64,000 nucleotides of DNA, from contig JBBRDV010000002.1 in assembly GCA_038203565.1 (NCBI GenBank), positions 14,283 to 78,282 on the forward strand, written 5' to 3'. Numbering within the stretch: position 1 is the stretch's first letter; each line of letters begins with the position of its first letter. The notes under the pieces were generated by a model. That model was not told the DNA's origin, searched no databases, and saw only the letters and a program-made list of their open reading frames with translations. This stretch comes from Atribacterota bacterium. Lineage in GTDB: Bacteria; Atribacterota; Phoenicimicrobiia; Phoenicimicrobiales; Phoenicimicrobiaceae. Of this stretch, positions 1,893 to 61,627 are shown in pieces. Both the position numbers and the translations under genes were made by a program.

Positions 1893-1980
1893 ATTAGTCG
1901 TTTGTATATAGTATATCGTATATAGTAGAGAAATAAAAGCCACAAATATAATTCGTATCTCGTGAATCGTATCTCGTGAA
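1893..1980. repeat. Heptad-type repeats (tatatcgtatata; TCGTATCTCGTGAA x2)
   Basis: attcgtatctcgtgaatcgtatctcgtgaa and gtatatagtatatcgtatatag lie directly upstream of the rhomboid RBS. Confidence 0.8.
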
Positions 1981-5467: not shown

Positions 5468-5510
5468 TTCAAAATTATCCTCACGATATACGCTATACTC
5501 AATACTATGG

Positions 5511-9063: not shown

Positions 9064-9081
9064 AGAATTAACCTCTCTCAA

Positions 9082-9123
9082 CTCGTATATCGTATATCGT
9101 ATTATATAGTATAGCGTATAGTC
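9082..9123. repeat. Heptad tandem repeats (TCGTATA x2.5, tatagtatagcgtatag)
   Basis: Seen directly, abutting the thyX RBS. Confidence 0.85.
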
Positions 9124-9846: not shown

Positions 9847-9940
9847 GCCTGTCTGCGCCTGCCTGTGCAACCTGCCTGTGCGCCTGCACGCAGACAGGTG
9901 CAAGCACGCACAGGTAGATGAATAGTCGTTAGTCGTTAGT
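9847..9940. repeat. Complex GC-rich nested palindrome (cctgtctgcgcctgcctgtgc ... cgcagacaggtgc ...) followed by (TAGTCGT)x2
   Basis: Inverted repeats cctgcctgtgcg/cgcacagg. It belongs to the same family as the 26926 and 59894 elements, and is followed by aatagtcgttagtcgttag. Confidence 0.75.
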
Positions 9941-9981
9941 TTAAAATGTAAAACTATTTTCATATATAATTAAATTAACAT

Positions 9982-12895: not shown

Positions 12896-12954
12896 CTGTC
12901 TTTAAAAATAAATTATCTATTATTTTGATTTACTAATTAAGCAATCCACCAAAC

Positions 12955-15246
<2,292 letters not shown>

Positions 15247-15296
15247 GATTTTACTCCTTCCTCTATTTTTCTCCTGGTTTTTTCTTATGTGATTTT

Positions 15297-15326
15297 CGAT
15301 ATACGATATACGACATACGATATACT
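15297..15326. repeat. (CGATATA)-type heptad array: cgatatacgatatacgacatacgatatact
   Basis: Seen directly, between the stop of the 496-aa ORF and the MBL gene start. Confidence 0.85.
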
Positions 15327-16815
15327 AAAATATTTCCCCAATTATTTTATTTAATCTTTCTTTTGCTAATTCCGGTTTAAAGTTTAATATAATGCTTCCC
15401 ATTTCCGTTTTTTGTATTATATTAAATGGCTCCAAAGAAAATACTTTAGTAATTTCTTCTACTTCATATTCTTGTACTCTTTCAAAACCAATGTATGTGT
15501 CTGTTCTTTGATTAATAATTTTGGTTAGTGACTCTACATTAAGATAAATTTTTTTGCCACTATTCTCGTGTAATAAATTAATAATGATATTAACCAGTTT
15601 TATTTTGTTATAAAGTATTTTTCTTTTTTCAAATAATTGAAAAATGTTATTCTCAGTAGAATTATCTACTAAAAAAATTGATTCCAAATTACTTAAAGAA
15701 AAAGGTAATTTATCATGTTCTTCTATCAGATTGCATAACCACCTTAGTTCAAACAATGTAACTTTGTTCTTATCTGTTTTTCGGTTTAGTTTATCATAAT
15801 CGAAATCCGGAGAAATAATCACCGAATAATCTGATTTTGTTTCCTCTTTTACCTTGCTCAACTCGTTCCAATGTTCATACTTTTGTATTTTTTCGTTTTT
15901 TTTATCTGATAACTTTGCATCAACAATTAAATTATATGTTTTATAATCTAATAATGCTTTTGCTAAAATAAAAGATACCTGTCCTTCTAATACAATAGAA
16001 GTTTCAAAACCCAAGAATTCAAACACTTTTTGAAGTAATTTTTTAAGATTTTCGTTATCTTCGGAACTTATCATTCTTAATTGCAATTTTTTAATTTCGC
16101 TCAACCAATCAAAGAGACCCCACATTTCTTCTTTCTCTTCGATAAATCGGAAGTCTTTCCTCAAAATATTATCAATATATTTAGAAAATAAATTCTCTCC
16201 GTTCACTTCTACCTCTAATACCCTTTCGCAAATCTCTGTATAAGTTAGAGATCGGCCTGCTTCTTGCAATATTTTAAAAATTTTTTCACTTAAATCGTCC
16301 TGAGGTTCTATCTTAGTCTCATCTTCTGTTACCAAAAAATATCGTTTTTTATCATAGTCAATAAGGCCAACAAAAACAACATCATTTACCTTTAATTTTT
16401 TCTTTTCATACCATTCTTTTAATCCCACTATATATTTTGAAACATTATTCACTATTGCTTCTATTTTATTTCCTTCTTTATCTATAAAGGTAATTTCAAC
16501 GGCATTTTCTTCTTTCGGGAAAAATGGTCTCATATAACTAGTTAAAAACATGGTACCGTCTTTCAAACAATAACTGGTGAGAGAATACTTAATGTTTGCA
16601 TCTTTATATTGCCATTTCACTAAACCCCATACTCCTCTTTTTATCCTCATAAATCTTTTATCTCCACTCATAGAGGCATTTACAGCATAATAGGGTTCTT
16701 TGACCTTTAATGGTCTTATTTTTGTTAACTCTTGAGTAATTTCGCGATAATGTAATGGCTTTTTATGTTTGATTAATATTTCATAAGCACTGTCAGCAAC
16801 TGATTTATGTTTCAT
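15325..16815 (-). CDS. Hypothetical protein with two HARE-HTH (RNAP delta-N-like) domains and a possible PD-(D/E)xK-like motif
   Basis: Two segments, ...DKRFMRIKRGVWGLVKW and ...DFRFIEEKEEMWGLFDW, match the F..x.G.WGL..W signature of HARE-HTH. D-x8-VDAK at LLDYKTYNLIVDAK resembles a PD-(D/E)xK core. Otherwise no homolog was recognised. Confidence 0.4.
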   Translation of the reverse strand: MKHKSVADSAYEILIKHKKPLHYREITQELTKIRPLKVKEPYYAVNASMSGDKRFMRIKRGVWGLVKWQYKDANIKYSLTSYCLKDGTMFLTSYMRPFFPKEENAVEITFIDKEGNKIEAIVNNVSKYIVGLKEWYEKKKLKVNDVVFVGLIDYDKKRYFLVTEDETKIEPQDDLSEKIFKILQEAGRSLTYTEICERVLEVEVNGENLFSKYIDNILRKDFRFIEEKEEMWGLFDWLSEIKKLQLRMISSEDNENLKKLLQKVFEFLGFETSIVLEGQVSFILAKALLDYKTYNLIVDAKLSDKKNEKIQKYEHWNELSKVKEETKSDYSVIISPDFDYDKLNRKTDKNKVTLFELRWLCNLIEEHDKLPFSLSNLESIFLVDNSTENNIFQLFEKRKILYNKIKLVNIIINLLHENSGKKIYLNVESLTKIINQRTDTYIGFERVQEYEVEEITKVFSLEPFNIIQKTEMGSIILNFKPELAKERLNKIIGEIF

Positions 16816-16969
16816 AAATCTTTAACCTCCAACTAATCAATTCACCGATTAGCCGATTCTTCAATTATATTTATAGCAGATACTAATTTTGAAAAAAATA
16901 TTTTGGTACTTTCTGATATTTTTCTTTTTTTTATTATATACATTTTTTTTTATATTTTACAAGTAAATT

Positions 16970-17087
16970 AATCGTTAGTCGATAGTGAATAGTTAACAGT
17001 TGCTTGGTTAGCTAGTTTGATATAATTCACCAACTAACCAAATATTCTAGGCGTTAGAATACGATATACTATATACGATATACTATT
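16970..17087. repeat. Mosaic: 17-mer-like aatcgttagtcgatagtgaatag, hairpin ttggttag/ctaaccaa, heptads acgatatactatatacgatatact
   Basis: Seen directly. Confidence 0.7.
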
Positions 17088-17089
17088 CT

Positions 17090-17590: not shown

Positions 17591-19086
17591 CTTCTTACTC
17601 CCATAACTGTTTTAATTTTTTCGGCAATTTTATCTCCTAATCCTGGTATTTTGCTTATTTCAATCTTGGAAGCATTCTTTAGCTCTTCTATGCTTTTAAA
17701 GTGTTCTAATAATACTCTTTTTCGTTTAGCGCCAATTCCTGGAATAAGATCTAACTTTGAATTGCGTAATTCTTTACTTCTAATCCTTCTGTGATAAGTC
17801 ACCGCGAATCTATGGGCCTCATCTCTTATTCTTTGCAGTAAAAAAAGTGCCTCAGAATTAGAAGGCAATATTATTGGTTTATGAACCTCCGGTTTAAATA
17901 TTTCCTCTTCTTTTTTAGCAATACTTATTATTGGCAATTTAAGATTCAGATCGTTTAATATTTTTTCTACCGCACTAAGTTGACCTCTCCCTCCATCAAC
18001 AAGGATTAAATCAGGTAATCTTTTATTTTCCAACAATAATCTTTTATATCTTCTTTCCGTTACTTCCTGTAACATGGCGTAATCATCAATTCCCTTAATT
18101 TTTTTTAATCTGAATCTTCGATAGTCTTCCTTTTTTGGTTGCCCTTCCTCAAAAACAACTAAAGAACCAACGGATAATTTTCCCTGAATATTTGAGATAT
18201 CGAATGCTTCAATTCTTTCTGGTAATTTTTCTAAGCTCAATTTATCTTTCAAATCAATAACTGCCTTCCGGCCTTTCTTAATTTCGTCTTCTTCTACTTC
18301 TTCTATTTTTTTCAACAAATAATCATTTTTATTACTTTTTCTAGATAAGTTTATCTCCTGACCTTTTAAAATTGCTTCAATTGATTTTATTCTATCTCTT
18401 ATTTTGGCAGCTTTTTCGTAATTTAGAATATGAGAAGCTTCTTTCATTTCTCGATAAAGACCATTAAATAATCTTTTTTGTTTCCCTGCCAAAAACAAGC
18501 AAATTTCCTTTATTCTTTTTCGGTACTCTGTTTTACTAATCATATTCGCACAAGGCGCTGAACATAAACCAATCTGGTAATCTAAGCAAATTTTCGTCTT
18601 CTTTAAATCCTTTTTTTTGCATCCTCTAATTTTAAAAACTTGCCTCAATAATTTTATAACAACCCGCGTGGCATTTGTATCCACAAAAGGACCAAAATAT
18701 AAAATTTTACCTTCTTTTATCTTTCGATTTATTTTTCTATAAAATAATATTTGAGGAAAGTCTCTCTCTAAAGTAATTTTAATATAGGGATAACTCTTAT
18801 CATCTTTCGATTGAGTATTATAGTAAGAATTACTGCTTTTAATCATTATACTTTCCAAGATAAGTGCTTCTATTTCAGAAGAAGTGGGTATATATTCAAC
18901 ATTTACGATCTCCTTTATCATCTTACTTATCTTTGGAGACTGTTGGGAAGAATTAATAAAATAAGAAGAAACTCTATTTTTCAAGGAATTAGCCTTCCCT
19001 ACATATATTACCTTTCCTTTTTTATCTTTAAAAAAATAAACTCCGCTTGTTTCAGGTAATTTACTTATCTTCGATTTAATATCCAT
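17587..19086 (-). CDS. uvrC: Excinuclease ABC subunit C (shorter than usual, 499 aa)
   Basis: N-terminal GIY-YIG (GVYFFKDKKGKVIYVGKA), the UvrC family region, and C-terminal HhH (IPGIGAKRK). Confidence 0.85.
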   Translation of the reverse strand: MDIKSKISKLPETSGVYFFKDKKGKVIYVGKANSLKNRVSSYFINSSQQSPKISKMIKEIVNVEYIPTSSEIEALILESIMIKSSNSYYNTQSKDDKSYPYIKITLERDFPQILFYRKINRKIKEGKILYFGPFVDTNATRVVIKLLRQVFKIRGCKKKDLKKTKICLDYQIGLCSAPCANMISKTEYRKRIKEICLFLAGKQKRLFNGLYREMKEASHILNYEKAAKIRDRIKSIEAILKGQEINLSRKSNKNDYLLKKIEEVEEDEIKKGRKAVIDLKDKLSLEKLPERIEAFDISNIQGKLSVGSLVVFEEGQPKKEDYRRFRLKKIKGIDDYAMLQEVTERRYKRLLLENKRLPDLILVDGGRGQLSAVEKILNDLNLKLPIISIAKKEEEIFKPEVHKPIILPSNSEALFLLQRIRDEAHRFAVTYHRRIRSKELRNSKLDLIPGIGAKRKRVLLEHFKSIEELKNASKIEISKIPGLGDKIAEKIKTVMGVRR

Positions 19087-19133
19087 AGTTAAACAATTCT
19101 CCGATTCACCGATTGACCTATTAATTAAGTTAG

Positions 19134-21956
19134 TTAATTTAATACTTTTTTTAAAAATTCTCCAGTAAATGAATTCTTATTGCACGCTATTTCTTCAGGA
19201 GTTCCCTTGGCCACAACTCTTCCTCCCTCTTCCCCGCCTTCCGGACCAAGATCAATAATATAGTCTGCTGATTTAATGACTTCTAAATTATGTTCAATTA
19301 CTATAACTGTATTCCCGACTTCTACTAGCCTATCTAAAACCTTGAGTAATTTTTTTACATCATCAAAATGTAAACCAGTGGTTGGCTCGTCTAATAAATA
19401 CATAGTCTTTCCTGTACTTTTAGTGCTCAATTCTTTAGCTAATTTGACCCTTTGTGCTTCTCCACCGGATAGGGTAGTGGCGGATTGACCTAATTTTATA
19501 TATCCTAATCCTACATCGCATAAAGTTTGTAATTTTCTTTTTATCATAGGGATTGCTGCAAAAAATTCCAAGGCCTCTTCAACGGTCATATCTAACACCT
19601 GAGCTATATTTTTACCCTTATATTTTATATCTAAAGTTTCACGATTGAACCTTTGACCTTTACAAATTTCACAGGGTATATATACATCAGGTAAAAAATA
19701 CATTTCAATCTTTACTATCCCTCCACCCTGACAAGCCTCACATCTTCCACCTTTTACATTAAAGCTAAATCTACCCGCTTTATAACCTCTAATTTTAGCT
19801 TCTTCGGTCCTGGAAAATATTTCTCTAATCGGAACAAAGGCTCCGGTATAAGTAGCAGGATTAGAGCGAGAAGTTCTACCTATGGGTGATTGATCGATAA
19901 TTATCACTTTATCAATATTTTCTATTCCTTCAATCTTATCATAATCACCAGGATGAACTCTGCTCTGATATATTTTTTTGATTAAAGCTTTATACAAGGT
20001 CTCCTCGATCAAAGTACTTTTCCCGGAACCAGATACTCCAGTAATACAAGTCAGTGTACCTAATGGAATAGATACATCAATATTTTTTAAATTGTACTGT
20101 CGAGCTCCGTAAATCTTTAAATATTTTCCATTACCCTTTCTTCTTCTGGAGGGGATATTAATTTTACTGAAGTGGCTCAGATATTTTCCAGTAATAGATT
20201 TCTTATTTTCTATTATATCCTTGCAGCTCCCCTTCGCTACTAAATATCCTCCATGTACCCCTGCTCCAGGACCAAGATCTACAATGTAATCTGCAATTCT
20301 CATCGTAGCTTCATCATGTTCAATTACTATCACTGTGTTCCCTAAATCTCTCAGCTTGATAAGAGTCTCCAAAAGTTTAGAGTTATCTTTTTGATGTAAA
20401 CCAATACTCGGTTCATCCAAGATATAAAGTACTCCGGTTAGGCTCGAGCCAATCTGGGTAGCCAAACGGATTCTCTGGTTTTCTCCTCCTGCTAATGTAG
20501 AAGATGAACGAGATAAGGATAGATAATTTAAACCTACATTACTTAAAAAACTTAATCTATTTTTTATCTCTTTTAAAATTTGTCCGGCAATAACCCTTCG
20601 TCTTTCATTTAATTTTAATTTTTCAAAAAAATTATAATTCCATTCGATAGATTTTTCAGTAATATCCGCTATAGAAAAACCGTCAATAGTAACACTTAAG
20701 CTTTCCGGACGAAGTCTTTTACCCTCACAAGAGGGACAGGGTCCAATATTCATAAACTTTTGTATCTCTGTGCGAATATATTCTGATTTAGTTTCTCGAT
20801 AACGTCTTTTCAAATTATTAATTACTCCCTCAAAAGAATTTTCATGAGTCCAATAGGTAGATCGTTCATCGTTCTGATATTGAAAGGGTATCTTTATTCC
20901 TCCCGAACCGTATAATAGAATCTCCTGAAATTCAGGTTTTAATTTAACGAAAGATGTATCAAGGTTGAAACCATAAAAATCAGCTAAACCTTTTAATATA
21001 TGATATAAATATTTTCCTTTAACCTCTCCCCAGGGAACTAAGGCACCCTGAAGTATAGATTTGTTCTTATCCGGTACAACTAATTCAGGATCAAATTCCA
21101 TTTTAAAACCTAAACCACCACAAGCAGGACAGGCTCCATAAGGATTATTAAATGAAAAGATTCGGGGAGCAATTTCTGGTAAATTAATTCCACAACTGGG
21201 ACAAGAAAAATGCTCGCTAAAGATCTTTTCTTTACCACCTTCTATATTAATTACTACTGTTCCTTCACTTAAACTTAAAGCAGTTTCGATAGAACCAGCC
21301 AAACGAGTCTTCATTTCAGGATTTACTATTAACCTGTCTACTACAACTTCGATATTATGATTTTTATACCGATCGATTTTTATATCCTCTTCTACTTCGA
21401 AAGTGTTTCCATCAACCCTTACTCTAACAAATCCTTTTTTTTGAATATCTTCTAATATTTGTTTGTGTTCACCTTTTTTGAAGCGAATTATTGGTGCTAA
21501 AACTTGTATTTTTGTTCCCGGGGATAAATTTAAAATTTGGTCAACCATCTGCTCGACCGTCTGCTTGCTAACCTGTCTACCGCACTGCGGGCAATGAGGT
21601 ATTCCAATCCGGGCAAAAAGTAACCGTAAATAATCATAAATTTCCGTTACGGTGCCTACGGTAGAACGAGGATTCTTACTTGCTTTTCTCTGATCAATTG
21701 AAATCGCTGGTGATAATCCTTCAATGTAATCCAGGTCAGGTTTTTTCATTCTTTCCATAAATTGACGAGCATAAGAAGACAAAGATTCAATATATCTTCT
21801 CTGACCTTCTGCATAAATCGTATCAAAAGCTAAAGAAGATTTACCAGAACCGCTCAATCCAGTAATTACAATTAATTTATTTCTAGGTATTTCCAAATTA
21901 ATATTCTTTAGATTATGTTCTCGTGCGCCTTTAATTATTATCTTAGTCTGAACCAC
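19134..21956 (-). CDS. uvrA: Excinuclease ABC subunit A
   Basis: Two ABC ATPase modules, zinc-finger CxxC motifs; 940 aa. Confidence 0.95.
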
Positions 21957-21973
21957 TTAATATCTCTCCTCTG

Positions 21974-21998
21974 AATCAGTATATACTATATACTGATT
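21974..21998. repeat. 25-bp palindrome aatcagtatatactatatactgatt
   Basis: Seen directly, between the uvrB stop and the uvrA start. Confidence 0.8.
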
Positions 21999-22005
21999 TA
22001 ATTCT

Positions 22006-24000
22006 TCATTTCCCGAATAAAGTTTCCTCTTTTTTTAATCTTTTTATTTCATCCCTCAGCAAGGCTGCTCTTTCAAAATCTAAATTTTTTGCTGCTTGCT
22101 TCATCTCTTTCTCCAAAGATTTTATCAATAACCATAAATTGCTCTTACTTAAGTATTTTTCATGCTCTTCGCTTACAGTAGAAAAATCTTCGGAACTATT
22201 CATGTTATTAATAACAGCAAATTCTTCTACCGTCTTAGTTATAGTTTTGGGAGTTATCTGGTATTTATGATTATATTCTGATTGTATTTCCCTTCTTCGA
22301 TTAGTTTCTTTCACTGCCCTTCTTATCGACCCAGTCATATTTTCACAATACAAAATAACTGTGCCGTTTATGTTTCTTGCTGCTCTCCCCATAGTCTGAA
22401 TTAAAGAGGTTTCTGACCTTAAAAAACCCTCTTTATCAGCATCCAAAATAGCTACTAAAGATACTTCCGGGAGGTCTAATCCTTCTCTTAAAAGATTAAC
22501 TCCTACTAATACATTAAATTTACCTAATCTTAAGTCCTTTAAAATGTTAATCCTTTCCAAAGTCTTAATCTCTGAGTGAAGATATTTTGCTTTTATATTA
22601 ATTTCTTCCAAATACTCAGCTACATCTTCAGCCATTCTTTTAGTTAAAGTAGTCACTAATACTCTCTCTTTTTTTTCTGTCCTTTTTTTTATTTCTGCTA
22701 TCAAGTTATCAATCTGATTTTTAACTGGTTTTAAAATTACCTCCGGGTCAACTAATCCTGTGGGTCTGATAATCTGTTCAACTGTTTGCTTACTTCCTTC
22801 TAATTCATATTTGGCTGGGGTTGCTGAAACGAAGATAACTTTATCCATATAATTTTCTATTTCTTTGAAATACAGTGGTCTATTATCATAGGCAGAAGGT
22901 AGACGAAAACCATATTCTACCAAACTATCCTTTCGAGACTTATCGCCCGCAAACATACCTCTTAATTGAGGAATAGTTACGTGGGATTCGTCAATAAACA
23001 TCATAAAATCAGAAGGAAAATAATCTAACAGAGTTGCCGGCGGTTCTCCTGATTTTCTTCCGCTAATATGACGAGAATAGTTCTCAATTCCACTGCAATA
23101 TCCCACTTCTTTTAACATTTCCAAATCATATTTTGTTCTTTGTTCTAATCTTTGAGCTTCCAAGAGCTTTCCCTCTTTTTTAAAATACTTTAATCTTTCT
23201 TTTAATTCTTCTTCAATATACAAAATTGCTTTTTCTAATTTATCTTTAGTGGTAACAAAGTGTTTTGCAGGATAAACTATCAATGTATCTTTTCTCTTTA
23301 TAGCTTTTCCGGTGAGAGGGTTTATCTCTAAAATTGCTTCTATTTTATCACCCCATAACTCTATACGAAAGGCATACTCTAAGTAGGAAGGAAATATTTC
23401 AATTACATCTCCTCTAACCCTAAAACATCCACGGTGAAAATCAATATCATTTCTCTCATAGTGTATATTTATAAGCCTCTCTAAAATACTATCTCTTTTG
23501 GAAATTTCGTTCTTACTAATTTTTAATACTAATTCTTGGTAATCTGTAGGAGAACCTAACCCGTATATACAAGATACACTGGCAACAATAATCACATCTC
23601 TTCTTTCCAAGAGAGAACTGGTAGCAGAGAGTCTTAAACGGTCAATTTCTTCGTTTATGGAGGAATCTTTTTCTATATAAGTATCTGTTCTCGGAATATA
23701 AGCTTCAGGTTGATAATAATCATAATAGCTTACAAAATATTCAACAGCATTATCAGGAAAAAATCTTCTAAATTCACTGCACAGTTGAGCAGCTAAGGTT
23801 TTATTATGTGAAATAACCAGAGTGGGTAATTGAACTTTTTGAATTACATTTGCCATAGTAAAAGTCTTCCCTGAACCGGTTACTCCCAGTAAAGTTTGAT
23901 ATTTGTAACCATTACGTATACCCTCTACTAATTTTTTTATAGCATGGGGCTGGTCTCCTTGAGGGGGAAAATCAGATACTAAATTAAATTCTTGAGTCAT
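22006..24000 (-). CDS. uvrB: Excinuclease ABC subunit B
   Basis: Helicase motifs (GVTGSGKT), beta-hairpin region, and a C-terminal UVR domain ([14 protein letters not shown]). Confidence 0.95.
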
Positions 24001-24080
24001 TTACAACACCTTTCTAAAACTACACTTATAATTTAATACTTATAATCTTCTTTTTACCATTAAATAATTATACACTTATT

Positions 24081-24354
24081 ATATCGTATTGCGTATATAG
24101 TATTTAGTATATAGTTAAAAAAGAAAGAGTACCCGGATAGGAGGGGCGTATCGGGTATCGAGTATCGCGGATAAGAATAGTGATGAGTAATGCGTAATAA
24201 GTAATTTGTAGGGGCACGATACATCGTGCCCAAGGCAAACAAAAGATAATAAAACAGGAAGGCACAATTCATTGTGCCCCTACACCTGAATCATATTTTT
24301 TTCACGCGATATACGATATACGATATACGATATACTATTCACTCACGACTAATT
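24081..24354. repeat. Large intergenic repeat mosaic: heptads (24081-24117, 24146-24172, 24305-24336), REP hairpins gtaggggcacgatacatcgtgccc (24208-24231) and ggcacaattcattgtgcccctac (24261-24283), and the 17-mer ctattcactcacgactaatt (24335-24354)
   Basis: Seen directly in the 370-bp region between ade and uvrB. Confidence 0.85.
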
Positions 24355-24369
24355 TAATTGGTTATTCAG

Positions 24370-26091
24370 CTAATCTACAAACAAATCTACAATTTTTGAA
24401 TTATTAACATCTACCAAGCCTTTATTGGTTATTTTAAGATGAGGAGCCACTTCTAAAGATAAAAAAGCGATACTCATAAAAGGATTGTCTACTGTAACTC
24501 CTAAATTTTGGGCAGTTTTGTAGATGGAGTCTAAATTTTCTTTTACCTCTAATAAAGGTTTATCTGACATCAGACCGGCAATAGGTAGAGGAAGTGAATT
24601 TACTATTTTTTCATCCACGGATATTGCCAATCCGCCTCCCATCTTTGAAATAGCTGCCCCGACATTTAACATATCTTTATCATTGGTACCCACAATTATA
24701 ATATTATGGGAATCATGGGCAACAGATGAGCCTAAAGCACCTTTTTTCAGGCCAATCCCTTTAACTAAACCTATATTTACTTTTTCTAAAGCATGATGTC
24801 TCTCTATTACGGCAATTTTTAAGATATCGCGCTTGGTATCAGAAACGACAAAGCCATCTTCGATTTTAGGAACTTCTATCATTTCTTCAGTAAGAATTTG
24901 GCCTGGAGTAATTTTTATAACTCTGCATTTATTACCTTTTGCCGGAATCTTGAAATCTTCGGGGTAAAGCCACTTGATATTAATTGACCCCCTGATAGGT
25001 ACCTCCAATGGTTTGGGACTTAGTTCCAACAACTCTCCGTTTTCGGCAACTAATTTTCCATTATTAAAAACTTTAAGGATATTAAAATCTTTAAAATTAT
25101 CAAAGACAACCAAATTTGCCACATAACCAGGAGCAATTGCACCTAAATTTCTTAGTCTAAAATATTCAGTAGTATTTATGGTGGCCATCCTTATAGCGGT
25201 AACAGGATCTATACCCTTCTTGATAGCAGTTTTTATAACATAATTAATATGCCCCTCTTCAATTAAATCTTTGGGGTGGCGGTCATCACAACAAAAGAAA
25301 CATCTTCGAGAATTATCAGGATTTATAAGGGGTAAAAGGTCGATTAAATTTCGAGTGACTGACCCTTCTCTCAACATAATATACATACCTAGTCTCAATT
25401 TTTCTTTAGCCTCCTCTACTGTAGTACATTCATGGTCAGATCTTATTTGAGCGGAAACATAGGCACAAAGATCCTTGCCGGATAAATTGGGAGCATGACC
25501 GTCAATACATTTTTTTGAAAATGCTACTATTTTATCTAAAACCTCAGGAATTTGGTTTAAAACTCCCGGAAAATTCATCATCTCTCCCAGCCCTAAAACC
25601 CATTTTTCGTCTAAAAGAGGGAATAAATCATTTACACTAAGATTTGCTCCGGAAGTTCCTAAAGATGAAGCAGGAACACAAGAAGGTAGCATCATAAAAA
25701 TATTTAAGGGGTTATATTTACTGGATTCTAACATATACCTGATACCTTCTAAACCCAATACATTGGCAATTTCGTGAGGATCAATTATTACTGAAGTTGT
25801 CCCCATTGGTACTACAGTCTTAGCAAATTCTGAAATTTTGACCATAGAACTTTCTAAGTGAATATGGCCATCTATAAATCCAGGAGACACATAACAATTA
25901 GAAATATCTATTTCCTTATCAGCGTCATATCCTTCCCCTAATCCTACAATCATATCTTTATAAATTGCAACATCGGAAGTATATATTTCTCCGGAAAAAA
26001 CATTAATTATCTTCCCATTTTTTAATAATAGATCTGCTCTTTCCTCTCCTCGAGCAATTTTAATAGTTTCAGCAAGACTCAAAACAATCAC
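24370..26091 (-). CDS. ade: Adenine deaminase
   Basis: Amidohydrolase HxH motif (GFIDGHIHLESS), similarity to adenine deaminase over 573 aa. The start may be the TTG about 9 nt downstream of the called GTG. Confidence 0.8.
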   Translation of the reverse strand: MIVLSLAETIKIARGEERADLLLKNGKIINVFSGEIYTSDVAIYKDMIVGLGEGYDADKEIDISNCYVSPGFIDGHIHLESSMVKISEFAKTVVPMGTTSVIIDPHEIANVLGLEGIRYMLESSKYNPLNIFMMLPSCVPASSLGTSGANLSVNDLFPLLDEKWVLGLGEMMNFPGVLNQIPEVLDKIVAFSKKCIDGHAPNLSGKDLCAYVSAQIRSDHECTTVEEAKEKLRLGMYIMLREGSVTRNLIDLLPLINPDNSRRCFFCCDDRHPKDLIEEGHINYVIKTAIKKGIDPVTAIRMATINTTEYFRLRNLGAIAPGYVANLVVFDNFKDFNILKVFNNGKLVAENGELLELSPKPLEVPIRGSINIKWLYPEDFKIPAKGNKCRVIKITPGQILTEEMIEVPKIEDGFVVSDTKRDILKIAVIERHHALEKVNIGLVKGIGLKKGALGSSVAHDSHNIIIVGTNDKDMLNVGAAISKMGGGLAISVDEKIVNSLPLPIAGLMSDKPLLEVKENLDSIYKTAQNLGVTVDNPFMSIAFLSLEVAPHLKITNKGLVDVNNSKIVDLFVD

Positions 26092-26099
26092 CCCTTCTT

Positions 26100-26139
26100 T
26101 CGTATATCGTATATCGTATATCGTATATCGTATATCGTT
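26100..26139. repeat. (TCGTATA)x5.5 perfect heptad array abutting the ade RBS
   Basis: tcgtatatcgtatatcgtatatcgtatatcgtatatcgtt. Confidence 0.9.
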
Positions 26140-26209
26140 AAAAACCTATACTTTATTAGCTATAAAATATTCTGAATACTGACTTCTTGCTTTTTTTACG
26201 AGATACGAT

Positions 26210-26824
26210 TCACGATATACTAGATAAGAGACTCTGCCAGATTGTTTCAACTTGTTTCTTCGTTTTATCTAACGTATCATTATTATCTATCACATAATCA
26301 GCCATTTTAATTTTTTCTTTCATTGGTATTTGCGATTTTATCCTCTGTGAGGCTTCATCTTTGGATAAATTGTTTCTTTTAATTAATCTCTTTACCTGCT
26401 CATCTTCATCTATATATACAACTATTATCTTATCCATTAATCTATCCATCTTAGCTTCATAGATTAAGGCAGCATCTATAATTAGTATTTTTTCCTGGTT
26501 ATGAGTTTTATCTCTTGCTAAATTTATTTCATTTTTAATCAACTTTATTATTTCAGGATGAGTAATTTCATTTAATTTTTTTAAGAGAACCTGATCTGCA
26601 AAAACTATTTTACCCAATTTTTCTCTATCAATAGTCAGGTCTTTTCTCAAAATATCTTCCCCAAATAATTTAACTATTTTCTTCCAGGCAGGTTTGTATG
26701 GTAAAATTACGCTATGGCCAAGTATATCAGCATCAATAATCTTAGCTCCCAAATCTCTAAACATTGATGCTACTGTACTTTTACCGCCTACAATTCCGCC
26801 AGTAAGACCAACAATCAATGCCAT
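26210..26824 (-). CDS. coaE: Dephospho-CoA kinase
   Basis: MALIVGLTGGIVGGKST Walker A; 204 aa. Confidence 0.85.
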   Translation of the reverse strand: MALIVGLTGGIVGGKSTVASMFRDLGAKIIDADILGHSVILPYKPAWKKIVKLFGEDILRKDLTIDREKLGKIVFADQVLLKKLNEITHPEIIKLIKNEINLARDKTHNQEKILIIDAALIYEAKMDRLMDKIIVVYIDEDEQVKRLIKRNNLSKDEASQRIKSQIPMKEKIKMADYVIDNNDTLDKTKKQVETIWQSLLSSIS

Positions 26825-26826
26825 GA

Positions 26827-27038
26827 TTCCTCCCTTAATAGTCGCTAGTCGTTAGTTATTGGTTTTTAGTGTAGGGGGCGGATTTATCCGCCCCGTTCAG
26901 TGATTATTTTCTTTCGGGCTCGATGCCTGCCTGTGCGTATCCGTACGCAGACAGGTGCAACGCACAGGCAGGCGCAGACAGGAATCGAGCCCCTACAGCA
27001 CAATATTTATTACGGGCAGACACAAGGTCTGCCCCTAC
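26827..27038. repeat. Repeat mosaic: tagtcgctagtcgttag (26838-26854), hairpin gtagggggcggatttatccgccccg (26871-26895), complex nested palindrome gggctcgat...atcgagcccctac (26926-26996), and REP gggcagacacaaggtctgcccctac (27014-27038)
   Basis: Seen directly. It fills the whole coaE-polA intergenic region. Confidence 0.85.
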
Positions 27039-29704: not shown

Positions 29705-29731
29705 AACTCTCTTCTTTCGTTCTATTTTTTC

Positions 29732-29760
29732 TTGACAATAAATATCACTTAACCTATAAT
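29732..29760 (+). promoter_or_regulatory. Consensus sigma-70-type promoter for tRNA-Leu: TTGACA (29732-29737), 17-nt spacer, TATAAT (29755-29760)
   Basis: Perfect -35 and -10 hexamers with 17-bp spacing; the tRNA starts about 22 nt downstream. Confidence 0.75.
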
Positions 29761-29782
29761 TTTTAAACAGAGACGCACATAT

Positions 29783-29871
29783 GCCGAAGTGGCGAAATTG
29801 GTAGACGCACTGGACTCAAAATCCAGCGAGCCTCACAGCTCGTGTCGGTTCGACTCCGACCTTCGGCACCA
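29783..29871 (+). tRNA. tRNA-Leu (anticodon CAA)
   Basis: Acceptor stem GCCGAAG/CTTCGGC, anticodon loop cuCAAaa, long variable arm, T-arm GGTTCGACTCC, and an encoded CCA. Confidence 0.9.
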
Positions 29872-29878
29872 CTTTATT

Positions 29879-29910
29879 TAGTCGTTAGTGAATAGTGATT
29901 AGTCGATATC
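29879..29910. repeat. 17-mer family copy: tagtcgttagtgaatagtgattagtcgatatc
   Basis: Seen directly, downstream of the tRNA. Confidence 0.7.
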
Positions 29911-30126: not shown

Positions 30127-30163
30127 TATAAATAAATCCTCTAATAGTAATTTTTATTATTCT

Positions 30164-33652: not shown

Positions 33653-33678
33653 GATAAAACCCCCTAGTCTACATCTTG

Positions 33679-33716
33679 TATCGAGTAAGAACAGTATATA
33701 GTATCGAGTATATATT
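33679..33716. repeat. Heptad-type repeats gtatcgagtaagaacagtatatagtatcgagtatat
   Basis: Seen directly. A second array, tactatatactcgataatatatactcgatactga, lies at 33831-33864. Confidence 0.8.
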
Positions 33717-33870
33717 AAAAACAAAGAATACTTTATATAAATTTGGATTATAATTTTTGTATTATTTTTACTGTCATTCGACAAATATATTTTATCTTTT
33801 CAGTCATTCTTCTCTTTGCTTTTCTCTCTTTACTATATACTCGATAATATATACTCGATACTGATTCTGT

Positions 33871-37877: not shown

Positions 37878-37880
37878 AAG

Positions 37881-38036
37881 CTCGTATCCAGTATCGAATA
37901 TCCGGTATATAGTATAGAGTAAAGAGAAAAAATAAATAAAAGAATAACTAAAAACTTCTAAAATTTAAGAATCTTACAAATTTGCCTCAGTTATTCACTC
38001 GATACTTGATACTGGATACTGGATACTCGATACTGA
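37881..38036. repeat. Two heptad arrays flanking an AT-rich spacer: ctcgtatccagtatcgaatatccggtatatagtatagagt, and ttattcact-(NGATACT)x5
   Basis: cgatacttgatactggatactggatactcgatactgac is seen directly, between convergent hflC and the fusion gene. Confidence 0.85.
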
Positions 38037-38041
38037 CTATA

Positions 38042-39910: not shown

Positions 39911-39940
39911 AGTATCAAGTATATAGTATCGAGTATCGAG
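39911..39940. repeat. Heptad-type repeats agtatcaagtatatagtatcgagtatcgag in the divergent promoter region
   Basis: Seen directly. Confidence 0.8.
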
Positions 39941-40035
39941 CTAAGAGATAAAAACATCGGATTAGCTATAAATTATATATAAATTATTTTTTGGAAAAAG
40001 AATTAAATATTTTTTCGAATTAAGTAGGAGTAAAA

Positions 40036-44104: not shown

Positions 44105-44136
44105 ATTATCTCCTCCATCTTAATTCGTATCTCGTA

Positions 44137-46286: not shown

Positions 46287-46425
46287 TATCGCGTATCGAG
46301 TATTAGGTATTTCGTAAAGAGAAAGAAAAGATTCAGAAACAAAATAAGAAAGGAAAAAACAAGAGTAATTACTATTCTTTTCTTTATCTTACTACCCCGC
46401 TTATGTAAAGTTATAGATTTTTTAA
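46287..46425. repeat. Repeat element: gcgtatcgagtattaggtat heptads, then aagagaaagaaaagat ... actaccccgcttatgtaaagtt. It is paralogous to the copy at 48326-48420.
   Basis: The two ~100-bp copies share gtatcgag-aagaaagagaagaaaagat-...-ACTACCCC-...-AAAGTT. Confidence 0.65.
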
Positions 46426-48522: not shown

Positions 48523-49452
48523 ATGAATAAACCAATGAATATTTTTAGAACCTTGACTGTTTTAACTCTATGCCTTTTGGTATTTTTAATTTTTAATTTT
48601 TCTTTTGTTTTTGCTGTTGAAGAAACATCTACTACCGAGACCAATACAGATACTGCCGACACTACCACCCTACCTTCCCAAGAAAAAACCGAAACTATAC
48701 TACCTCCGGAAACGATATTGGCTTCTTTTGGGGAGTATACTATTTCGCTGGGTGAATTTAATCAATTATGGGAAGAGATTCCGGAAGAGTCCAAAGTACA
48801 GCTTGATAAAAGTATGGTGCTCGACCAGATGATCTCAGAAAAACTGTTAATTCAAGAAGCAAAAAATATGGGTTTAGAAAAAGACAACGACGTATTAGAA
48901 CAGATTAAAAAAATAGCCGAACAAATTATAGTTCAAACTTTAATAGAAAGAGAAATCTTAAACAAGGTAAAGGTTAGTGATGAAGAAGTTTCCGAATATT
49001 ATGAACAAAACAAGGATAGTTTCACTGAAAAAGAACAAGTGCATTTATATAATATTTTATTAAAGACCGAGGAAGAGGCCCAAAATGTTCTCCAGCAATT
49101 GATAGCTGGAGGAGATTTTAACGCAATTACCATAGAAAAATCTACCGGCCCCAGTGCTGCCCAGGGTGGAGATTTAGGATATTTGTCTAAGGGTTCATTA
49201 ATTCCAGAAATTGAAGAGGTAATCTTCGCCTTAGAGATAGAAGAATTGAGCGAAGTAGTTAAAACTGATTTCGGTTTTCATATTTTTAAAATCACTGATA
49301 AAAAACCAGAAACCGTTATAGCTCTTGAAGAGGTTAAAGAAGAAATCATTCAAACTTTACTGCCTACTAAACAAAAAGAAGCTTTTGATAATCTCTTAGA
49401 AGAACTAAAGGGTAAAGTAGAAATCGAAATAAATGAAGAAGCTTTTAAATAG
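48523..49452 (+). CDS. PpiC/parvulin-type peptidyl-prolyl isomerase (PrsA/SurA-like foldase), secreted or lipid-anchored
   Basis: N-terminal signal/TM segment, Thr-rich linker, and parvulin domain (GGDLGYLSKG...FGFHIFK). Confidence 0.75.
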   Translation: MNKPMNIFRTLTVLTLCLLVFLIFNFSFVFAVEETSTTETNTDTADTTTLPSQEKTETILPPETILASFGEYTISLGEFNQLWEEIPEESKVQLDKSMVLDQMISEKLLIQEAKNMGLEKDNDVLEQIKKIAEQIIVQTLIEREILNKVKVSDEEVSEYYEQNKDSFTEKEQVHLYNILLKTEEEAQNVLQQLIAGGDFNAITIEKSTGPSAAQGGDLGYLSKGSLIPEIEEVIFALEIEELSEVVKTDFGFHIFKITDKKPETVIALEEVKEEIIQTLLPTKQKEAFDNLLEELKGKVEIEINEEAFK

Positions 49453-49513
49453 TATCGAGTATCGCGTATTGCCTAAGATATATGGGAGCTCAATGAATCG
49501 AGCTCCCATATAT
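49451..49513. terminator. Heptads (agtatcgagtatcgcgtatt), then a 14-bp perfect-stem hairpin atatatgggagctc-aatgaatc-gagctcccatatat, between convergent prsA and pcrA
   Basis: Perfect inverted repeat at 49478-49513. There is no strong T-tract, so its terminator function is inferred. Confidence 0.45.
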
Positions 49514-49557
49514 TACTTATTACATATCACTTATTACTGTATTCTGTACGCTACACG

Positions 49558-54046: not shown

Positions 54047-54119
54047 TTTTACTTACCTCCTCATTAAGACTAACTTTAGGATAATTTTAACATATTTTTC
54101 TAAAAATTACATAATATTA

Positions 54120-54180
54120 ATTCGTATCTCGTGAATCGTATCTCGTGAATCGTATCTCGTTTTTTAGCGTATAACGTATA
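54120..54180. repeat. (TCGTATCTCGTGAA)x2.8 14-nt (2x7) tandem array plus agcgtataacgtatag
   Basis: ttcgtatctcgtgaatcgtatctcgtgaatcgtatctcgt. It is the same unit as at 1951-1980. Confidence 0.9.
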
Positions 54181-58291: not shown

Positions 58292-58336
58292 TAGTCGTTA
58301 GTATATAATTAGCGTAGAGCGTACAGCGTATAGTGT
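58292..58336. repeat. 17-mer-like tagtcgttagtatataat then (GCGTANA)x3 repeats
   Basis: tagcgtagagcgtacagcgtatagtgtc seen directly, immediately upstream of the purB RBS. Confidence 0.8.
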
Positions 58337-59893: not shown

Positions 59894-60075
59894 GGGTTTG
59901 ATGCCTGCCTGTGCGTTCCCGCACCTGTCTGCGTACGGATACGCACAGGCAGGCGCAGACAGGAATCAAACCTCTACAACACATTACTTATTTCGGGCAG
60001 ACACAAGGTCTGCCCCTACTTGTACCTTACGACCTTATCTTTCTTCTTCTTTCCAACTATACGCTATACGCTATT
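59894..60075. repeat. Complex nested palindrome gggtttgat...atcaaacctctac (59894-59977), REP gggcagacacaaggtctgcccctac (59995-60019), and heptads ctatacgctatacgctatt (60057-60075)
   Basis: Seen directly. It is paralogous to 26926-27038. Confidence 0.85.
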
Positions 60076-60076
60076 T

Positions 60077-61627
60077 TCATTCCCATTCAATCGTTGCTGG
60101 TGGTTTTGAACTAATATCATAAACCACCCGGTTAATACCTTTAACTTCATTAATAATTCTATTAGATATCTCTCCTAATATCTTATATGGTATTTTAGCC
60201 CAATCAGCAGTCATACCATCACTACTGGTTACAATCCTTAAGGTAAGAACAAAATCATAGGTTCGACTATCTCCCATCACTCCAACTGTCTTTATGGGAA
60301 GTAAGATGCCAAAAGATTGCCATACCTTTTTATAGAGATTGTTCTTTTTTATTTCTTGTTTAATTATCTCATCTGCTTCTCTTAAAATATCTAACTTTTC
60401 TTTATCGGCCAAACCAATTACTCTTATAGATAACCCCGGCCCAGGGAAAGGTTGTCTCCAGATTACTTCTTCAGGAAACTTTAGTTTTTTCGCTACTTTC
60501 CTCACTTCATCCTTAAACAGGTATTTTAAGGGCTCCAGGACTTTAAGTTTCATTTCCTCAGGCAATCCACCTACATTATGATGAGACTTAATCTTTGAAG
60601 AAGGACCTTCTAAGGAAATACTCTCTATTACATCGGGATAGAGAGTCCCTTGTAATAAATATTCTACCTTACCGATGTCTTTTGCCTTTTCCTCAAATAT
60701 TCGAATAAATTCTTCCCCAACAACCTTTCTCTTTGTTTCGGGGTCACTTATGCCTTTCAATCTCTTTAAAAATCTCTCAGAGGCATCAACATAGATTAAA
60801 TCTATTTTAAAATTTTCTTTAAATCTTTTTTGTACTTCTTCTGCTTCTCCCTTTCTTAATAGGCCATTATTAATGAAAATACAATATAGCTGATTACCAA
60901 TAGCCTTGTGGGTTAATACTGCTGCCACCAATGAATCTATCCCTCCACTTACGCCAGCTACTACCCTACCTTTACCAACTTTTTCTTTAATCTCCTTTAC
61001 AGATTGTTCGATGAATGACTCCAGATTCCAACTAGGCTTGCACTGGCATATCTTATACAGAAAATTCTCAAATATCTTTTTTCCTAAAGGTGTATGGGTA
61101 ACTTCAGGATGAAATTGGATTCCATAAATTTTCTTCTCCTTATTTACCATGGCTGCAATTTTGGTATTTTCGCTACGAGCGATGGTTTTAAAATTTAGAG
61201 GAAGATCTTCTACTAAATCTTGATGACTCATCCAGCAATCGGTCTCTTTAGGATATCCATAAAAAATATCCTCTTGATTATCCAAAATAATATTAACCCT
61301 GCCATATTCTGCTTGATACGTCTTGGCAACTTTCCCTCCTAAAACCTGGGCAATTAGTTGGGCACCATAACAAATACCTAATATGGGTATATCTAATTCA
61401 AATATTTTTTTATCACATATTGGTGCTTGAGCTTCATATACGCTTGCTGGTCCCCCAGAGAGGATAACCCCTTTAGGTGGATCCTTTCGTATTTTTTCTA
61501 AGCTGATATAATAAGGAAATATTTCCGAGTAAACTTTAGCTTCTCTTATTCGTCTGGCAATTAATTGGGTATATTGTGAACCAAAATCTAAAATTGCAAT
61601 CCATTCTTTCTTTTCCCCTTTTTTCAA
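60077..61627 (-). CDS. guaA: GMP synthase (glutamine-hydrolysing)
   Basis: GATase domain plus an ATP-pyrophosphatase domain (SGGIDSLV P-loop); 516 aa. Confidence 0.95.
   Translation of the reverse strand: MKKGEKKEWIAILDFGSQYTQLIARRIREAKVYSEIFPYYISLEKIRKDPPKGVILSGGPASVYEAQAPICDKKIFELDIPILGICYGAQLIAQVLGGKVAKTYQAEYGRVNIILDNQEDIFYGYPKETDCWMSHQDLVEDLPLNFKTIARSENTKIAAMVNKEKKIYGIQFHPEVTHTPLGKKIFENFLYKICQCKPSWNLESFIEQSVKEIKEKVGKGRVVAGVSGGIDSLVAAVLTHKAIGNQLYCIFINNGLLRKGEAEEVQKRFKENFKIDLIYVDASERFLKRLKGISDPETKRKVVGEEFIRIFEEKAKDIGKVEYLLQGTLYPDVIESISLEGPSSKIKSHHNVGGLPEEMKLKVLEPLKYLFKDEVRKVAKKLKFPEEVIWRQPFPGPGLSIRVIGLADKEKLDILREADEIIKQEIKKNNLYKKVWQSFGILLPIKTVGVMGDSRTYDFVLTLRIVTSSDGMTADWAKIPYKILGEISNRIINEVKGINRVVYDISSKPPATIEWE

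Follow-up and report, generated by a model that had tools for sequence, protein, structure and literature searches.

Intergenic DNA in a 64-kb stretch of a JS1-type Atribacterota metagenome-assembled genome (GenBank assembly GCA_038203565.1, contig JBBRDV010000002.1, positions 14,283 to 78,282; hereafter the window) carries short tandem arrays of seven-nucleotide units. They form a genuine intergenic family that is not the product of chance and keeps strictly to a 7-nt register. The window has a GC content of about 32%, nearly all of its genes lie on the minus strand, and its 35 intergenic gaps make up 11% of its length. Tandem Repeats Finder (TRF) returned about 20 arrays whose period is 7 or 14 and whose copy number runs from 2.6 to 5.6, and the arrays listed in the original prediction, which had been made from the letters alone, were recovered at or within a few bases of the places it had named. 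The 35 gaps contained 14 period-7 arrays, as compared with 0.16 ± 0.37 (maximum 1) in 100 dinucleotide-preserving shuffles of all the gaps. Array counts at periods 5, 6, 8, 9 and 10 in the same gaps were at the chance level of the shuffles. In non-coding DNA the self-match peaked at lags 7 (0.373), 14 (0.348) and 21 (0.326), with other lags at about 0.31; in the same lag analysis of the window, coding DNA showed the codon period of 3 only.

The arrays are concentrated in non-coding DNA and close to the ends of genes. A strict detector (self-match of at least 80% across three units) found 16 arrays in the whole window, 13 of which fall within the non-coding 11%. The original prediction had placed none of its arrays inside a verified coding region, but at 26205-26235, 15325-15329 and 1201-1205 the array reaches into the stop codon or the final codons of the gene upstream. 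Its statement that almost every gap has an array was too broad: a typed array is present in 17 of the 35 gaps, or in about 23 when two-unit or degenerate runs are included, and arrays take up about 10% of the intergenic DNA. The strict 7-nt period holds for most of the arrays it had listed, the AATCGGT-type arrays at 16831-16860 and 19096-19122 having a period of 8 instead. A gene boundary lies at most 26 nt away for 16 of 23 arrays, where 9.5 would be expected (p = 0.0014). About half of the arrays directly follow stop codons, and arrays are also present in both convergent gaps. Arrays of the AC[G/T]N4 type end 2-25 nt short of the ribosome-binding site (RBS) or start codon of ade, thyX, the rhomboid gene, coaE and the gene at 56976-58283, in agreement with the predicted abutment on these RBSs, which are clear GGAGG-type sites. 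The open reading frame (ORF) calls of thyX and dnaE are over-extended, as had been suspected, by about 25 and about 47 codons, respectively, and the arrays there therefore lie upstream of the true starts. The arrays are also seen in four related metagenome-assembled genomes (MAGs).

The unit is defined by an in-register core. The original prediction had described the core as centred on CG, and this has to be revised: the in-register invariant is [A/C]GT, mostly within GTAT or ATAC, with MGTATAK as the consensus. The tetramers ATAC and GTAT recur at lag 7 in 25 and 18 cases, respectively, as compared with 0-0.2 at lags 5, 6 and 8-11. The CG dinucleotide recurs too (44 versus 5.8), yet it occupies variable positions, in which it is merely frequent. 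Among 110 distinct heptads from the window and the four related MAGs, position 1 is A or C at a frequency of 0.94, position 2 is G at 0.98 and position 3 is T at 0.96. Positions 4 to 7 are variable, with A at position 4 at 0.69 and T at position 5 at 0.63. The heptad phase was picked to maximise GT, and hence the informative figure is the share of arrays with any such phase; this phase exists in at least 21 of about 26 intergenic arrays of the window, where composition predicts roughly a third. The provision of stop codons in all frames was considered as a purpose of the arrays. AGT-type units give a TAG every 7 nt, but CGT-type units, which account for about 44% of the heptads, carry no stop in any frame, and the idea was therefore rejected. 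G tracts are absent, each unit holding at most one or two isolated G, so that there are no units of the G-quadruplex type. No array of TAACTGA, a heptamer repeated in other phyla, was found in the window by TRF and heptad phasing. One of the related MAGs (L001) has TAACTGA-like heptads (AAACTGATAACTGAAAACTGA; array 17834-17857) and a run of ACTNNNN heptads within 17834-17905.

The arrays also follow an orientation rule. In a gap, whichever strand is read, the order is 5'-(MGTATNN)n ... (NNATACK)n-3', i.e., the arrays point inward; seen in the sense of the genes, GT-type heptads come after stop codons and AC-type heptads before a promoter or RBS. Adjacent opposite-type pairs from the window, the related MAGs, other phyla and metagenome loci were ordered GT-then-AC in 19 cases and the reverse in 2. 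One of the two exceptions spans a gene, and the array at 1160-1205 is the one clear exception in the window. Both convergent gaps follow the rule, which is strand-symmetric and therefore not attributable to the direction of transcription. Matched inverted pairs of arrays number four in the window, and others are found in the MAGs L001 and L004, in locus L011 from another phylum and in metagenome loci; many gaps have one arm only. The two arms of a gap match each other better than arms across gaps do (permutation p = 0.0012), and the rare unit GTATCCA is found in both arms of the gap 37878-38041. Single-strand folding of three of the four gaps with matched arms, compared with shuffles, predicts in each case a basal stem formed by the arms. 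The fold z was -2.63 for the coaE-ade gap (arm-matching score 41), -3.95 for the gap upstream of dnaE, where the predicted stem closes the gap (33679-33864; arm score 44), and -5.74 for the convergent gap 37881-38036. Sense and antisense folds showed no consistent difference in stability or in the use of G-U pairs, which favours a palindrome at the DNA level. An RNA-specific structure was rejected on this ground, and the Rfam search gave only tRNA and a glycine riboswitch.

Further motifs are nested inside the arms in a recurring order, with AGTCGTT/AGTGAAT heptads outermost, then a purine tract, then period-8 arrays, and GTAGGGG-headed GC-rich hairpins at the centre. The purine tract (AGTAAAGAGAGAAAAG) comes after the GT-type arm and its complement ahead of the AC-type arm. 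GTAGGGG is present in 18 copies against 3.5 expected, mostly intergenic, and several copies form inverted doublets (24208/24277, 26871/26990 and 58444/58494). In their letters the central hairpins resemble repetitive extragenic palindromic (REP) elements and their doublets (REPINs), in that they have a GTAG head, an imperfect palindrome and inverted doublets, features that the heptad arrays lack. The 64-kb window has no gene for a REP-associated tyrosine transposase (RAYT, a Y1 transposase). The two arms often carry the same unit variant and enclose REP-like hairpins, and such a gap is then a long imperfect palindrome. The period-8 units, YGGNNAAT octamers (AATCGGTG, AATTGGTA), are also found in L002 (2380-2430), L003 (about 8660-8730), L004 (about 1150-1185) and the metagenome contig L141 (about 2100-2290); they often form inverted pairs nested in the heptad arms and are a second short-period repeat class of the same gaps. 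Two other palindromic elements were observed in the window. One consists of nested GC-rich palindromes and spans about 115 nt (CTGTCTGCGCCTGCCTGTGCG...) at 59903-60020 and 26925-27039, the two copies being 91-94% identical and partly inverted. The other is a near-perfect palindrome of about 95 nt at 53030-53127 (GTAGGGGTCAGGTCTCAACATTTGACATAAGC...GCTTATGTCAAATGTTGAGACCTGACCCCTAT), which takes up the gap separating an aminotransferase gene from the next gene.

The gap between uvrB and ade (24001-24369) is an example. On the plus strand the order is the -10-like element of uvrB, three GT-type arrays (24080-24205), a hairpin doublet (24208-24283), (CGATATA)4 (24303-24343) and the ade stop codon. 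The outermost left array lies just upstream of the -10-like element TGTATAAT (24074-24067, minus strand), and this promoter-like sequence is conserved in L001, L002 and L003. The hairpin at 24280-24259 on the minus strand, with its T-rich tail, scores as terminator-like for ade, whose stop codon lies 26 nt before the right arm. An independent contig of the same strain (L091, whose positions 1-30 correspond to window position ~24336) ends inside the (TATATCG)n array.

Comparison with relatives shows that the arrays turn over. The four MAGs (L001-L004), assigned to Atribacterota/Caldatribacteriota, were found through their adenine deaminase genes with 82-97% protein identity, and they are colinear with the window for uvrABC, polA, coaE, ade and dnaE. 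Coding DNA aligns at 72-98%; the gaps are mostly not alignable. For the array at the ade RBS, the window has (ACGATAT)5, L001 has (ACGAGAT)3 plus ACGATTC, and L004 has four units of the ACGCTAT type; these orthologous arrays are all anchored at the same RBS. The unit count here is five versus four, in a species-level comparison in which other indels are present. One substitution per unit, present in every copy of the array, separates these orthologues, and such an array-wide single substitution is a signature of homogenisation within the array. L003 has no array upstream of ade, and the gap upstream of dnaE in L001 is only 47 nt long. Upstream of ligA, L081, L083 and L085 are about two heptads shorter than the window, again with other indels present. 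The same arrays as in the window were seen in the independent assemblies L082, L084 and L091. An exact look-up of the coaE protein for contigs of the same strain gave no match, and other proteins led to short contigs; the gatC contigs were either identical to the window or from more distant strains. The gatC contigs L082, L084, L087 and L088 also end about 40 nt after the gene; the heptad arrays probably fragment Atribacterota assemblies.

Arrays have also been copied between loci. A mixed 32-mer at 1949-1980 is identical to 54118-54149, and a terminal motif, ACGAATTAA on the gene-sense strand, is common to 54118-54160, 1949-1980, 44105-44136 and one L001 array. Other array families likewise have defined common termini, for example ...GATACGAATTAA and CACTAACGACTAA(T/A)TAA. 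In L004, a left arm of 57 nt and a right arm of 35 nt, each with a specific order of variants, are present in two gaps with different centres. Both arms resemble the window gap 58284-58546, to which the right arm is about 90% identical, and the window array at 58309-58336 has a non-orthologous counterpart in L004 with about 90% identity across 47 nt. A self-BLAST of the window showed no sequence, flanking or internal, shared between array-bearing gaps beyond the arrays. Since nothing is shared outside the arms and recurring arms have different centres, the arrays are not classic copies of a miniature inverted-repeat transposable element (MITE), a candidate we rejected.

Strict period-7 arrays number 32 in 110 kb of Atribacterota DNA versus 20 in 1.17 Mb of control loci from other phyla, a 17-fold difference in density. 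Two Anaerolineae loci have the same design with GC-richer units. In L011 a stop codon is followed by (GCGTGAA/GCGTGGA)n, a spacer, (CGCTCCA/CGCTTCA)n and an RBS, GT-type then AC-type; in L007 heptads lie beside a GTAGGG hairpin doublet (7185-7245). Heptad arrays with an ACG/CGT core were noted on contigs of 57-62% GC, at 3330-3410 and 7125-7245 of L007, 19375-19990 of L011 and 231-938 of the metagenome contig L105. A metagenome scan was pre-selected on five GTAT cores at 7-nt spacing, and the matches listed include the eukaryotic telomere-like contigs L149 and L165; the scan indicates that such arrays are widespread, but because of this selection on GTAT it shows presence, not enrichment or taxonomic range. 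Among the matches listed, L162 and L131 (34% GC) carry the unit families of the window, contigs of 39-62% GC carry GT-then-AC pairs, and L141 has the full nesting of heptads, octamers, GC hairpin, octamers, heptads and ATG. The L011 region 19375-19990 also contains a four-helix-bundle gene of TIGR02436, a family with kinship to Avd and the 23S rRNA intervening-sequence protein, with heptad hairpins on both sides of the gene, and the array-rich coaE gaps of L002 (Atribacteria 4572_76) hold a truncated TIGR02436-type copy and an N-terminal fragment (1-213 and about 858-925). Genes of this type may be small mobile cassettes that use array gaps. A general link between the arrays and TIGR02436 genes was rejected: no such gene lies in the window, and no more than a weak AT-rich heptad run accompanies a third example (L016).

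What process would produce such gaps? The comparisons above demonstrate the register, the location, the orientation rule, the matching of arms, the turnover and the copying between loci. The account we favour, in which our confidence is evenly balanced, is that the arrays are palindromic intergenic repeats driven by slippage and similar to bacterial interspersed mosaic elements (BIMEs), acting, if at all, at the DNA level. Replication slippage would lengthen and shorten the arrays by 7 nt at a time and would also homogenise their units. Recombination, template switching between repeats or some mobilising activity would keep the two arms alike and spread them between loci. The outcome would be a BIME-like mosaic of palindromic intergenic DNA that might extrude as hairpins or cruciforms, and effects on neighbouring genes, such as hairpins at transcript ends or occlusion of an RBS or promoter, would be secondary and locus-dependent, with no dedicated regulatory design. 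Published heptamer repeats offer parallels in indels of 7-nt steps, mixed heptamers, orientation, contig breaks and variable convergent pairs (PMC4679880, PMC4692102). It also speaks for this account that the window genes examined are all housekeeping genes, with no transposase or mobile-element gene among them.

Several points weigh against this account. Slippage alone does not explain why a common [A/C]GT core is held in register while the other positions vary, why a single inverted arrangement is permitted, or why similar units and arrangements are found on contigs of 34-62% GC, Anaerolineae included. These three features would be better explained by a sequence-specific reader or a shared mobile origin. 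No mobilising enzyme was identified in the window. The account rests on the 64 kb of the window and about 46 kb from the four MAGs. Length differences were seen between relatives only, the one uvrB contig of the same strain (L091) breaking inside the array.

The main rival, which the original prediction had also raised and which we consider distinctly less probable, is an abundant sequence-specific protein that would bind the arrays and recognise a 7-nt register in DNA or in single-stranded nucleic acid, with one protomer on each [A/C]GTAT core and with the inward arrays marking or insulating gene boundaries; a ribbon-helix-helix protein of the omega/ParB type or a nucleoid-associated protein would be a model. 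An invariant core with variable neighbours across many loci and several lineages, the 19:2 orientation rule and the clustering of arrays at gene boundaries would all be expected of it. In several stems (L095 and L112) GTAT and ATAC pair while the 2-3 variable bases often do not, which suggests a constraint on the motif rather than on pairing. There is a precedent in omega2 of plasmid pSM19035, which reads a 7-bp register of at least four contiguous heptads (PMC9499535), and the authors on Nostoc and Beggiatoaceae likewise postulate a heptamer-binding protein. However, no candidate protein is encoded in the window, and the presence or absence of arrays at orthologous gaps (none at ade in L003; a dnaE gap of 47 nt in L001) argues against an essential site. 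The common core could also stem from the shared descent of copied arrays, and the arms of one gap share variable positions beyond what a motif would need.

A role in RNA appears doubtful. Here the arms would pair in polycistronic or read-through transcripts and loop out the gap, providing an RNase III site, a barrier to decay at the 3' end or a coupling of stop codon to RBS. Such a role fits arms that touch a stop codon at one end of the gap and an RBS at the other, as well as predicted stems far more stable than those of shuffles. For TAACTGA repeats, which can stop 1 nt short of a start codon, MacGregor has suggested a function in translation (PMC4679880). Yet the equal behaviour of sense and antisense folds speaks for no particular strand, the same architecture is present in both convergent gaps, which have no downstream start, and many gaps are single-armed. 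In the focal uvrB-ade gap and the gap 16816-17089 the gene-proximal arm is upstream of promoter-like elements and would fall outside the mRNA of the downstream gene, and no Rfam family matches the arrays.

The original prediction had offered slippage elements that tune the spacing between promoter and RBS. The unit numbers that differ between relatives and the array-wide substitutions are what slippage-prone repeats would be expected to show; the tuning of spacing, i.e., copy-number-variable contingency elements giving phase-variable expression, is very improbable, even though an RBS is abutted in several cases. Some half of the arrays come after stop codons or sit in convergent gaps, and where promoter-like elements are visible (just a -10 in the focal gap, both -35 and -10 in 16816-17089) the arrays lie upstream of them. 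The neighbours are core housekeeping genes (uvrABC, polA, dnaE, ligA, thyX and coaE), not surface or contingency genes, and a 7-nt array upstream of an intact RBS leaves the distance from RBS to start unchanged. Simple sequence repeats of phase variation are placed inside an ORF or between the promoter elements of a surface or contingency gene, whereas the window arrays are found at stop codons, ahead of promoter-like elements or ahead of an intact RBS. Chance in AT-rich low-complexity DNA or an assembly artefact can practically be dismissed: such DNA does yield weak short-period matches, and relaxed hits at periods 5 and 6 equal those at period 7, but only period 7 beats the dinucleotide shuffles, G and C are held in register within arrays, and the arrays recur in independent assemblies and in the four related MAGs.

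Table 1. Heptad arrays and associated repeats in the window (RBS, ribosome-binding site; TRF, Tandem Repeats Finder).
Feature	Positions	Strand	Basis
uvrB-ade gap, left-arm heptads CGTATAT AGTATTT AGTATAT	24080..24115	+	TRF period 7/14; phased heptads
uvrB-ade gap, second left-arm array CGTATCG GGTATCG AGTATCG	24146..24169	+	TRF; phased heptads
uvrB-ade gap, degenerate heptads AGTGATG AGTAATG CGTAATA	24178..24205	+	phased heptads
uvrB-ade gap centre, REP-like inverted doublet GTAGGGGCACGATACATCGTGCCC ... GGCACAATTCATTGTGCCCCTAC	24208..24283	.	sequence; GTAGGGG count
uvrB-ade gap, right arm, minus-strand reading AGTGAAT AGTATAT (CGTATAT)3	24303..24343	-	TRF 24307-24335 CGATATA, 4.1 copies, 100%
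(CGTATAT)5 at rhomboid stop codon	1160..1205	+	TRF TCGTATA 1164-1199, 5.1 copies
TGTATAT AGTATAT CGTATAT then (TCGTATCTCGTGAA)2, upstream of rhomboid gene	1901..1980	+	TRF TCGTATCTCGTGAA 1953-1980
AGTATTG AGTATAG CGTATAT, fills 43-nt gap	5483..5507	-	phased heptads
Array abutting thyX RBS (true ATG 9062)	9079..9121	+	TRF TCGTATA 9083-9102
(AGTCGTT)2-3, outermost motif type	9919..9943	+	TRF TAGTCGT 9923-9940; more copies 26839-26860, 29878-29898
AGTATAT CGTATGT CGTATAT CGTATAT, overlaps stop of ORF 15325-16815	15290..15329	-	TRF CGATATA 15297-15325
Gap 16816-17089: AGTCGAT AGTGAAT AGTTAAC (+, 16972-17002) and AGTATAT CGTATAT AGTATAT (-, 17058-17087)	16972..17087	.	phased heptads
(CGTATAT)5 abutting ade RBS, left arm of coaE-ade gap	26094..26142	+	TRF TCGTATA 26100-26138, 5.6 copies, 100%
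Right arm of coaE-ade gap, AGTATAT CGTGAAT CGTATCT CGTAAAA, overlaps coaE stop	26205..26235	-	pairs with 26094-26142
Matched inverted arms upstream of dnaE: plus GT-type 33679-33716, minus GT-type 33831-33864	33679..33864	.	TRF
Convergent gap, matched arms 37881-37936 (+) and 37996-38036 (-)	37881..38036	.	TRF ACTCGAT 37997-38034
AGTATAT AGTATCG AGTATCG, divergent gap	39911..39941	+	TRF AGTATCG 39911-39940
Degenerate GT-type heptads beside pyrimidine tract, upstream of ligA	46287..46316	+	sequence reading
Convergent gap: AGTATCG AGTATCG CGTATTG after plus-strand gene	49449..49557	.	TRF AGTATCG 49451-49469
(TCGTATCTCGTGAA)2.8	54118..54160	+	TRF 54122-54160
CGTAGAG CGTACAG CGTATAG, 25 nt from start of gene 56976-58283	58309..58336	+	TRF AGCGTAC 58311-58330
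(CGTATAG)2 at stop codon of gene 60077-61627	60054..60078	-	TRF CTATACG 60057-60074
Period-8 array, YGGNNAAT type, before RBS of ORF 15325-16815	16831..16860	-	8-nt units by eye
Period-8 array, YGGNNAAT type	19096-19122		TRF period 8
GTAGGGG-headed GC-rich hairpins, e.g. GTAGGGGCAGACCTTGTGTCTGCCC	9150-9195 (two), 12953-12981, 24208-24283, 26871-27040, 51812-51818, 58444-58500, 59983-60020		

The remaining arrays of the window are listed with those of the focal gap in Table 1. In the gap 16816-17089 the arrays surround a small hairpin, with the promoter-like element gene-ward of them. The convergent gap 49449-49557 has AGTAATA/AGTGATA and TAGCGTG/TAGCGTA units after its minus-strand gene and a GC hairpin between the two sides. 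A perfect 12-nt tandem repeat, (GTATCAAAGAAA)3.4, at 48290-48330 in a divergent gap runs straight into GTATCGA-type heptads.

Some observations concern the neighbouring genes. The repair and replication genes are clustered on one strand at 17587-33784 and 44137-51750 (uvrC, uvrA, uvrB, polA and dnaE, then ligA and a UvrD/PcrA helicase), with rho, pyrG, tdk and thyX nearby. A glycine riboswitch aptamer (Rfam RF00504, 59.8 bits) at 61900-62001 lies upstream of the plus-strand gene 62176-63873. The ORF 38042-39691 joins an N-terminal RNase H domain to a D-2-hydroxyacid dehydrogenase; the fusion is unusual, and the ORF call may have run two genes together. The first 70 or so residues of the 496-aa ORF 15325-16815 match the N-terminal domain of the RNA polymerase delta subunit (TIGR04567) just below the cut-off, and the rest of this ORF had no family hit. 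Two short minus-strand ORFs lie in gaps: one at about 10200-10405, which by eye resembles ribosomal protein L31 and has a clean hairpin-plus-T-tract terminator after it, and one of about 75 aa at 29945-30125, which adjoins tRNA-Leu(CAA) at 29783-29871.

The arrays are a new lineage and unit family of a known class, which comprises the short tandemly repeated repetitive (STRR) and long simple sequence repeat (LSSR) heptanucleotide repeats, the TAACTGA repeats and the Xanthomonas GGGAATC inverted pairs. The original prediction had held that no recognised feature class covers them, and this was mistaken, although the literature searched yielded no report of intergenic repeats in Atribacteria. Records of heptamer repeats go back to 1990, first in cyanobacteria and later in Xanthomonas, Beggiatoaceae and Bacteroidetes, and the repeats had no accepted function by 2022, when the role of the Nostoc heptamers was still called speculative. 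The window adds a deep-branching, uncultured subsurface phylum to this class and a particularly clean case of it, with one core, one orientation rule, a position at gene ends, a nested palindrome and the same layout across very different GC contents. These regularities can be tested genome-wide, and they give concrete probes for a binding protein or a mobilising activity. In practice, the arrays probably break short-read Atribacterota assemblies, and they cause over-extended ORF calls, as in thyX and dnaE.

The closest general class is that of STRR/LSSR repeats. Of these, STRR1 (CCCCAGT) and STRR3 (CAACAGT) contain the AGT core. Like them, the window arrays have tandem 7-nt units, mostly intergenic and at many loci, with several related units per genome that are commoner than other unit lengths; they are repeated head-to-tail in at least three copies and exceed composition at period 7. 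They differ in their phylum, in their AT-rich MGTATNN units, in having one core in nearly all arrays, in being short (3-6 units), and in being laid out as inward-pointing inverted arms around REP-like hairpins. The STRR heptamers of heterocystous cyanobacteria were described in 1990 (Mazel 1990, as summarised in PMC4679880 and PMC4692102), and heptamers are reported as the commonest long simple-sequence-repeat unit in prokaryotes, with slippage proposed (Mrazek 2007, as cited in PMC4679880 and PMC4692102). The Xanthomonas GGGAATC and Nostoc GGGGAYT heptamers are intergenic and transcribed on either strand (Rehm 2015, PMC4692102), and Xanthomonas has 70-75 convergent inverted pairs per genome, whose position is kept while length and sequence vary between close relatives (PMC4692102). 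Convergent inverted pairs within one intergenic region are common to Xanthomonas and the window, but the G-rich units of Xanthomonas and Nostoc are of the G-quadruplex or i-motif kind, structures that the window units cannot form.

The TAACTGA repeats of marine Beggiatoaceae (including those of Guaymas Basin), Cyanobacteria and Bacteroidetes have "forward" arrays that end just before start codons (MacGregor 2015, PMC4679880). In Flexibacter the reverse orientation is seen behind a stop codon. The repeats run to two to six heptads, with related heptamers mixed in; 7-nt indels separate strains and contigs end inside arrays (PMC4679880). The AC[G/T]N4 arrays of the window likewise stand in forward orientation just upstream of start codons, and TAACTGA read as ACTGATA fits their register, as do STRR1 and STRR3, which is a lead only. 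Whereas the TAACTGA family has one dominant unit, mostly no canonical RBS and one reported inverted pair, the window has a family of units, GGAGG-type RBSs and common inverted pairs. A bolder proposal is that the Atribacterota arrays, TAACTGA, STRR1/STRR3 and the GC-rich ACG-type arrays of Anaerolineae are one cross-phylum "heptad boundary code", read by a conserved protein in a 7-nt register and delimiting or insulating transcription units; we regard it as rather unlikely. If it were true, runs of AC[G/T]-N4 would point toward the adjacent gene and their complement away from it, and palindromic gaps would follow from two facing boundaries.

Two further systems share parts of the design. The ribbon-helix-helix protein omega (omega/ParB) of pSM19035 reads contiguous 7-bp iterons, direct or inverted, with one dimer per heptad and at least four needed (PMC9499535). 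Its operators and parS sites resemble the arrays in their contiguous direct and inverted 7-bp repeats; they differ in being a few plasmid sites of other sequence with a known protein, whereas the arrays described here are chromosome-wide. The central hairpins bring the gaps close to REP, BIME and REPIN elements, of which E. coli BIMEs are intergenic mosaics of REP-type motifs. The heptad tandem arms stand outside any REP definition, the window lacks a RAYT, and the arrays have no common flanks of the sort that copies of a single mobile element would show. What they share with REP/BIME/REPIN systems (Bertels and Rainey 2011, PMC3116915) is an assembly of short motifs in fixed order and alternating orientation, with GTAG-headed hairpins often present as inverted doublets, a position at gene ends and a fast turnover.

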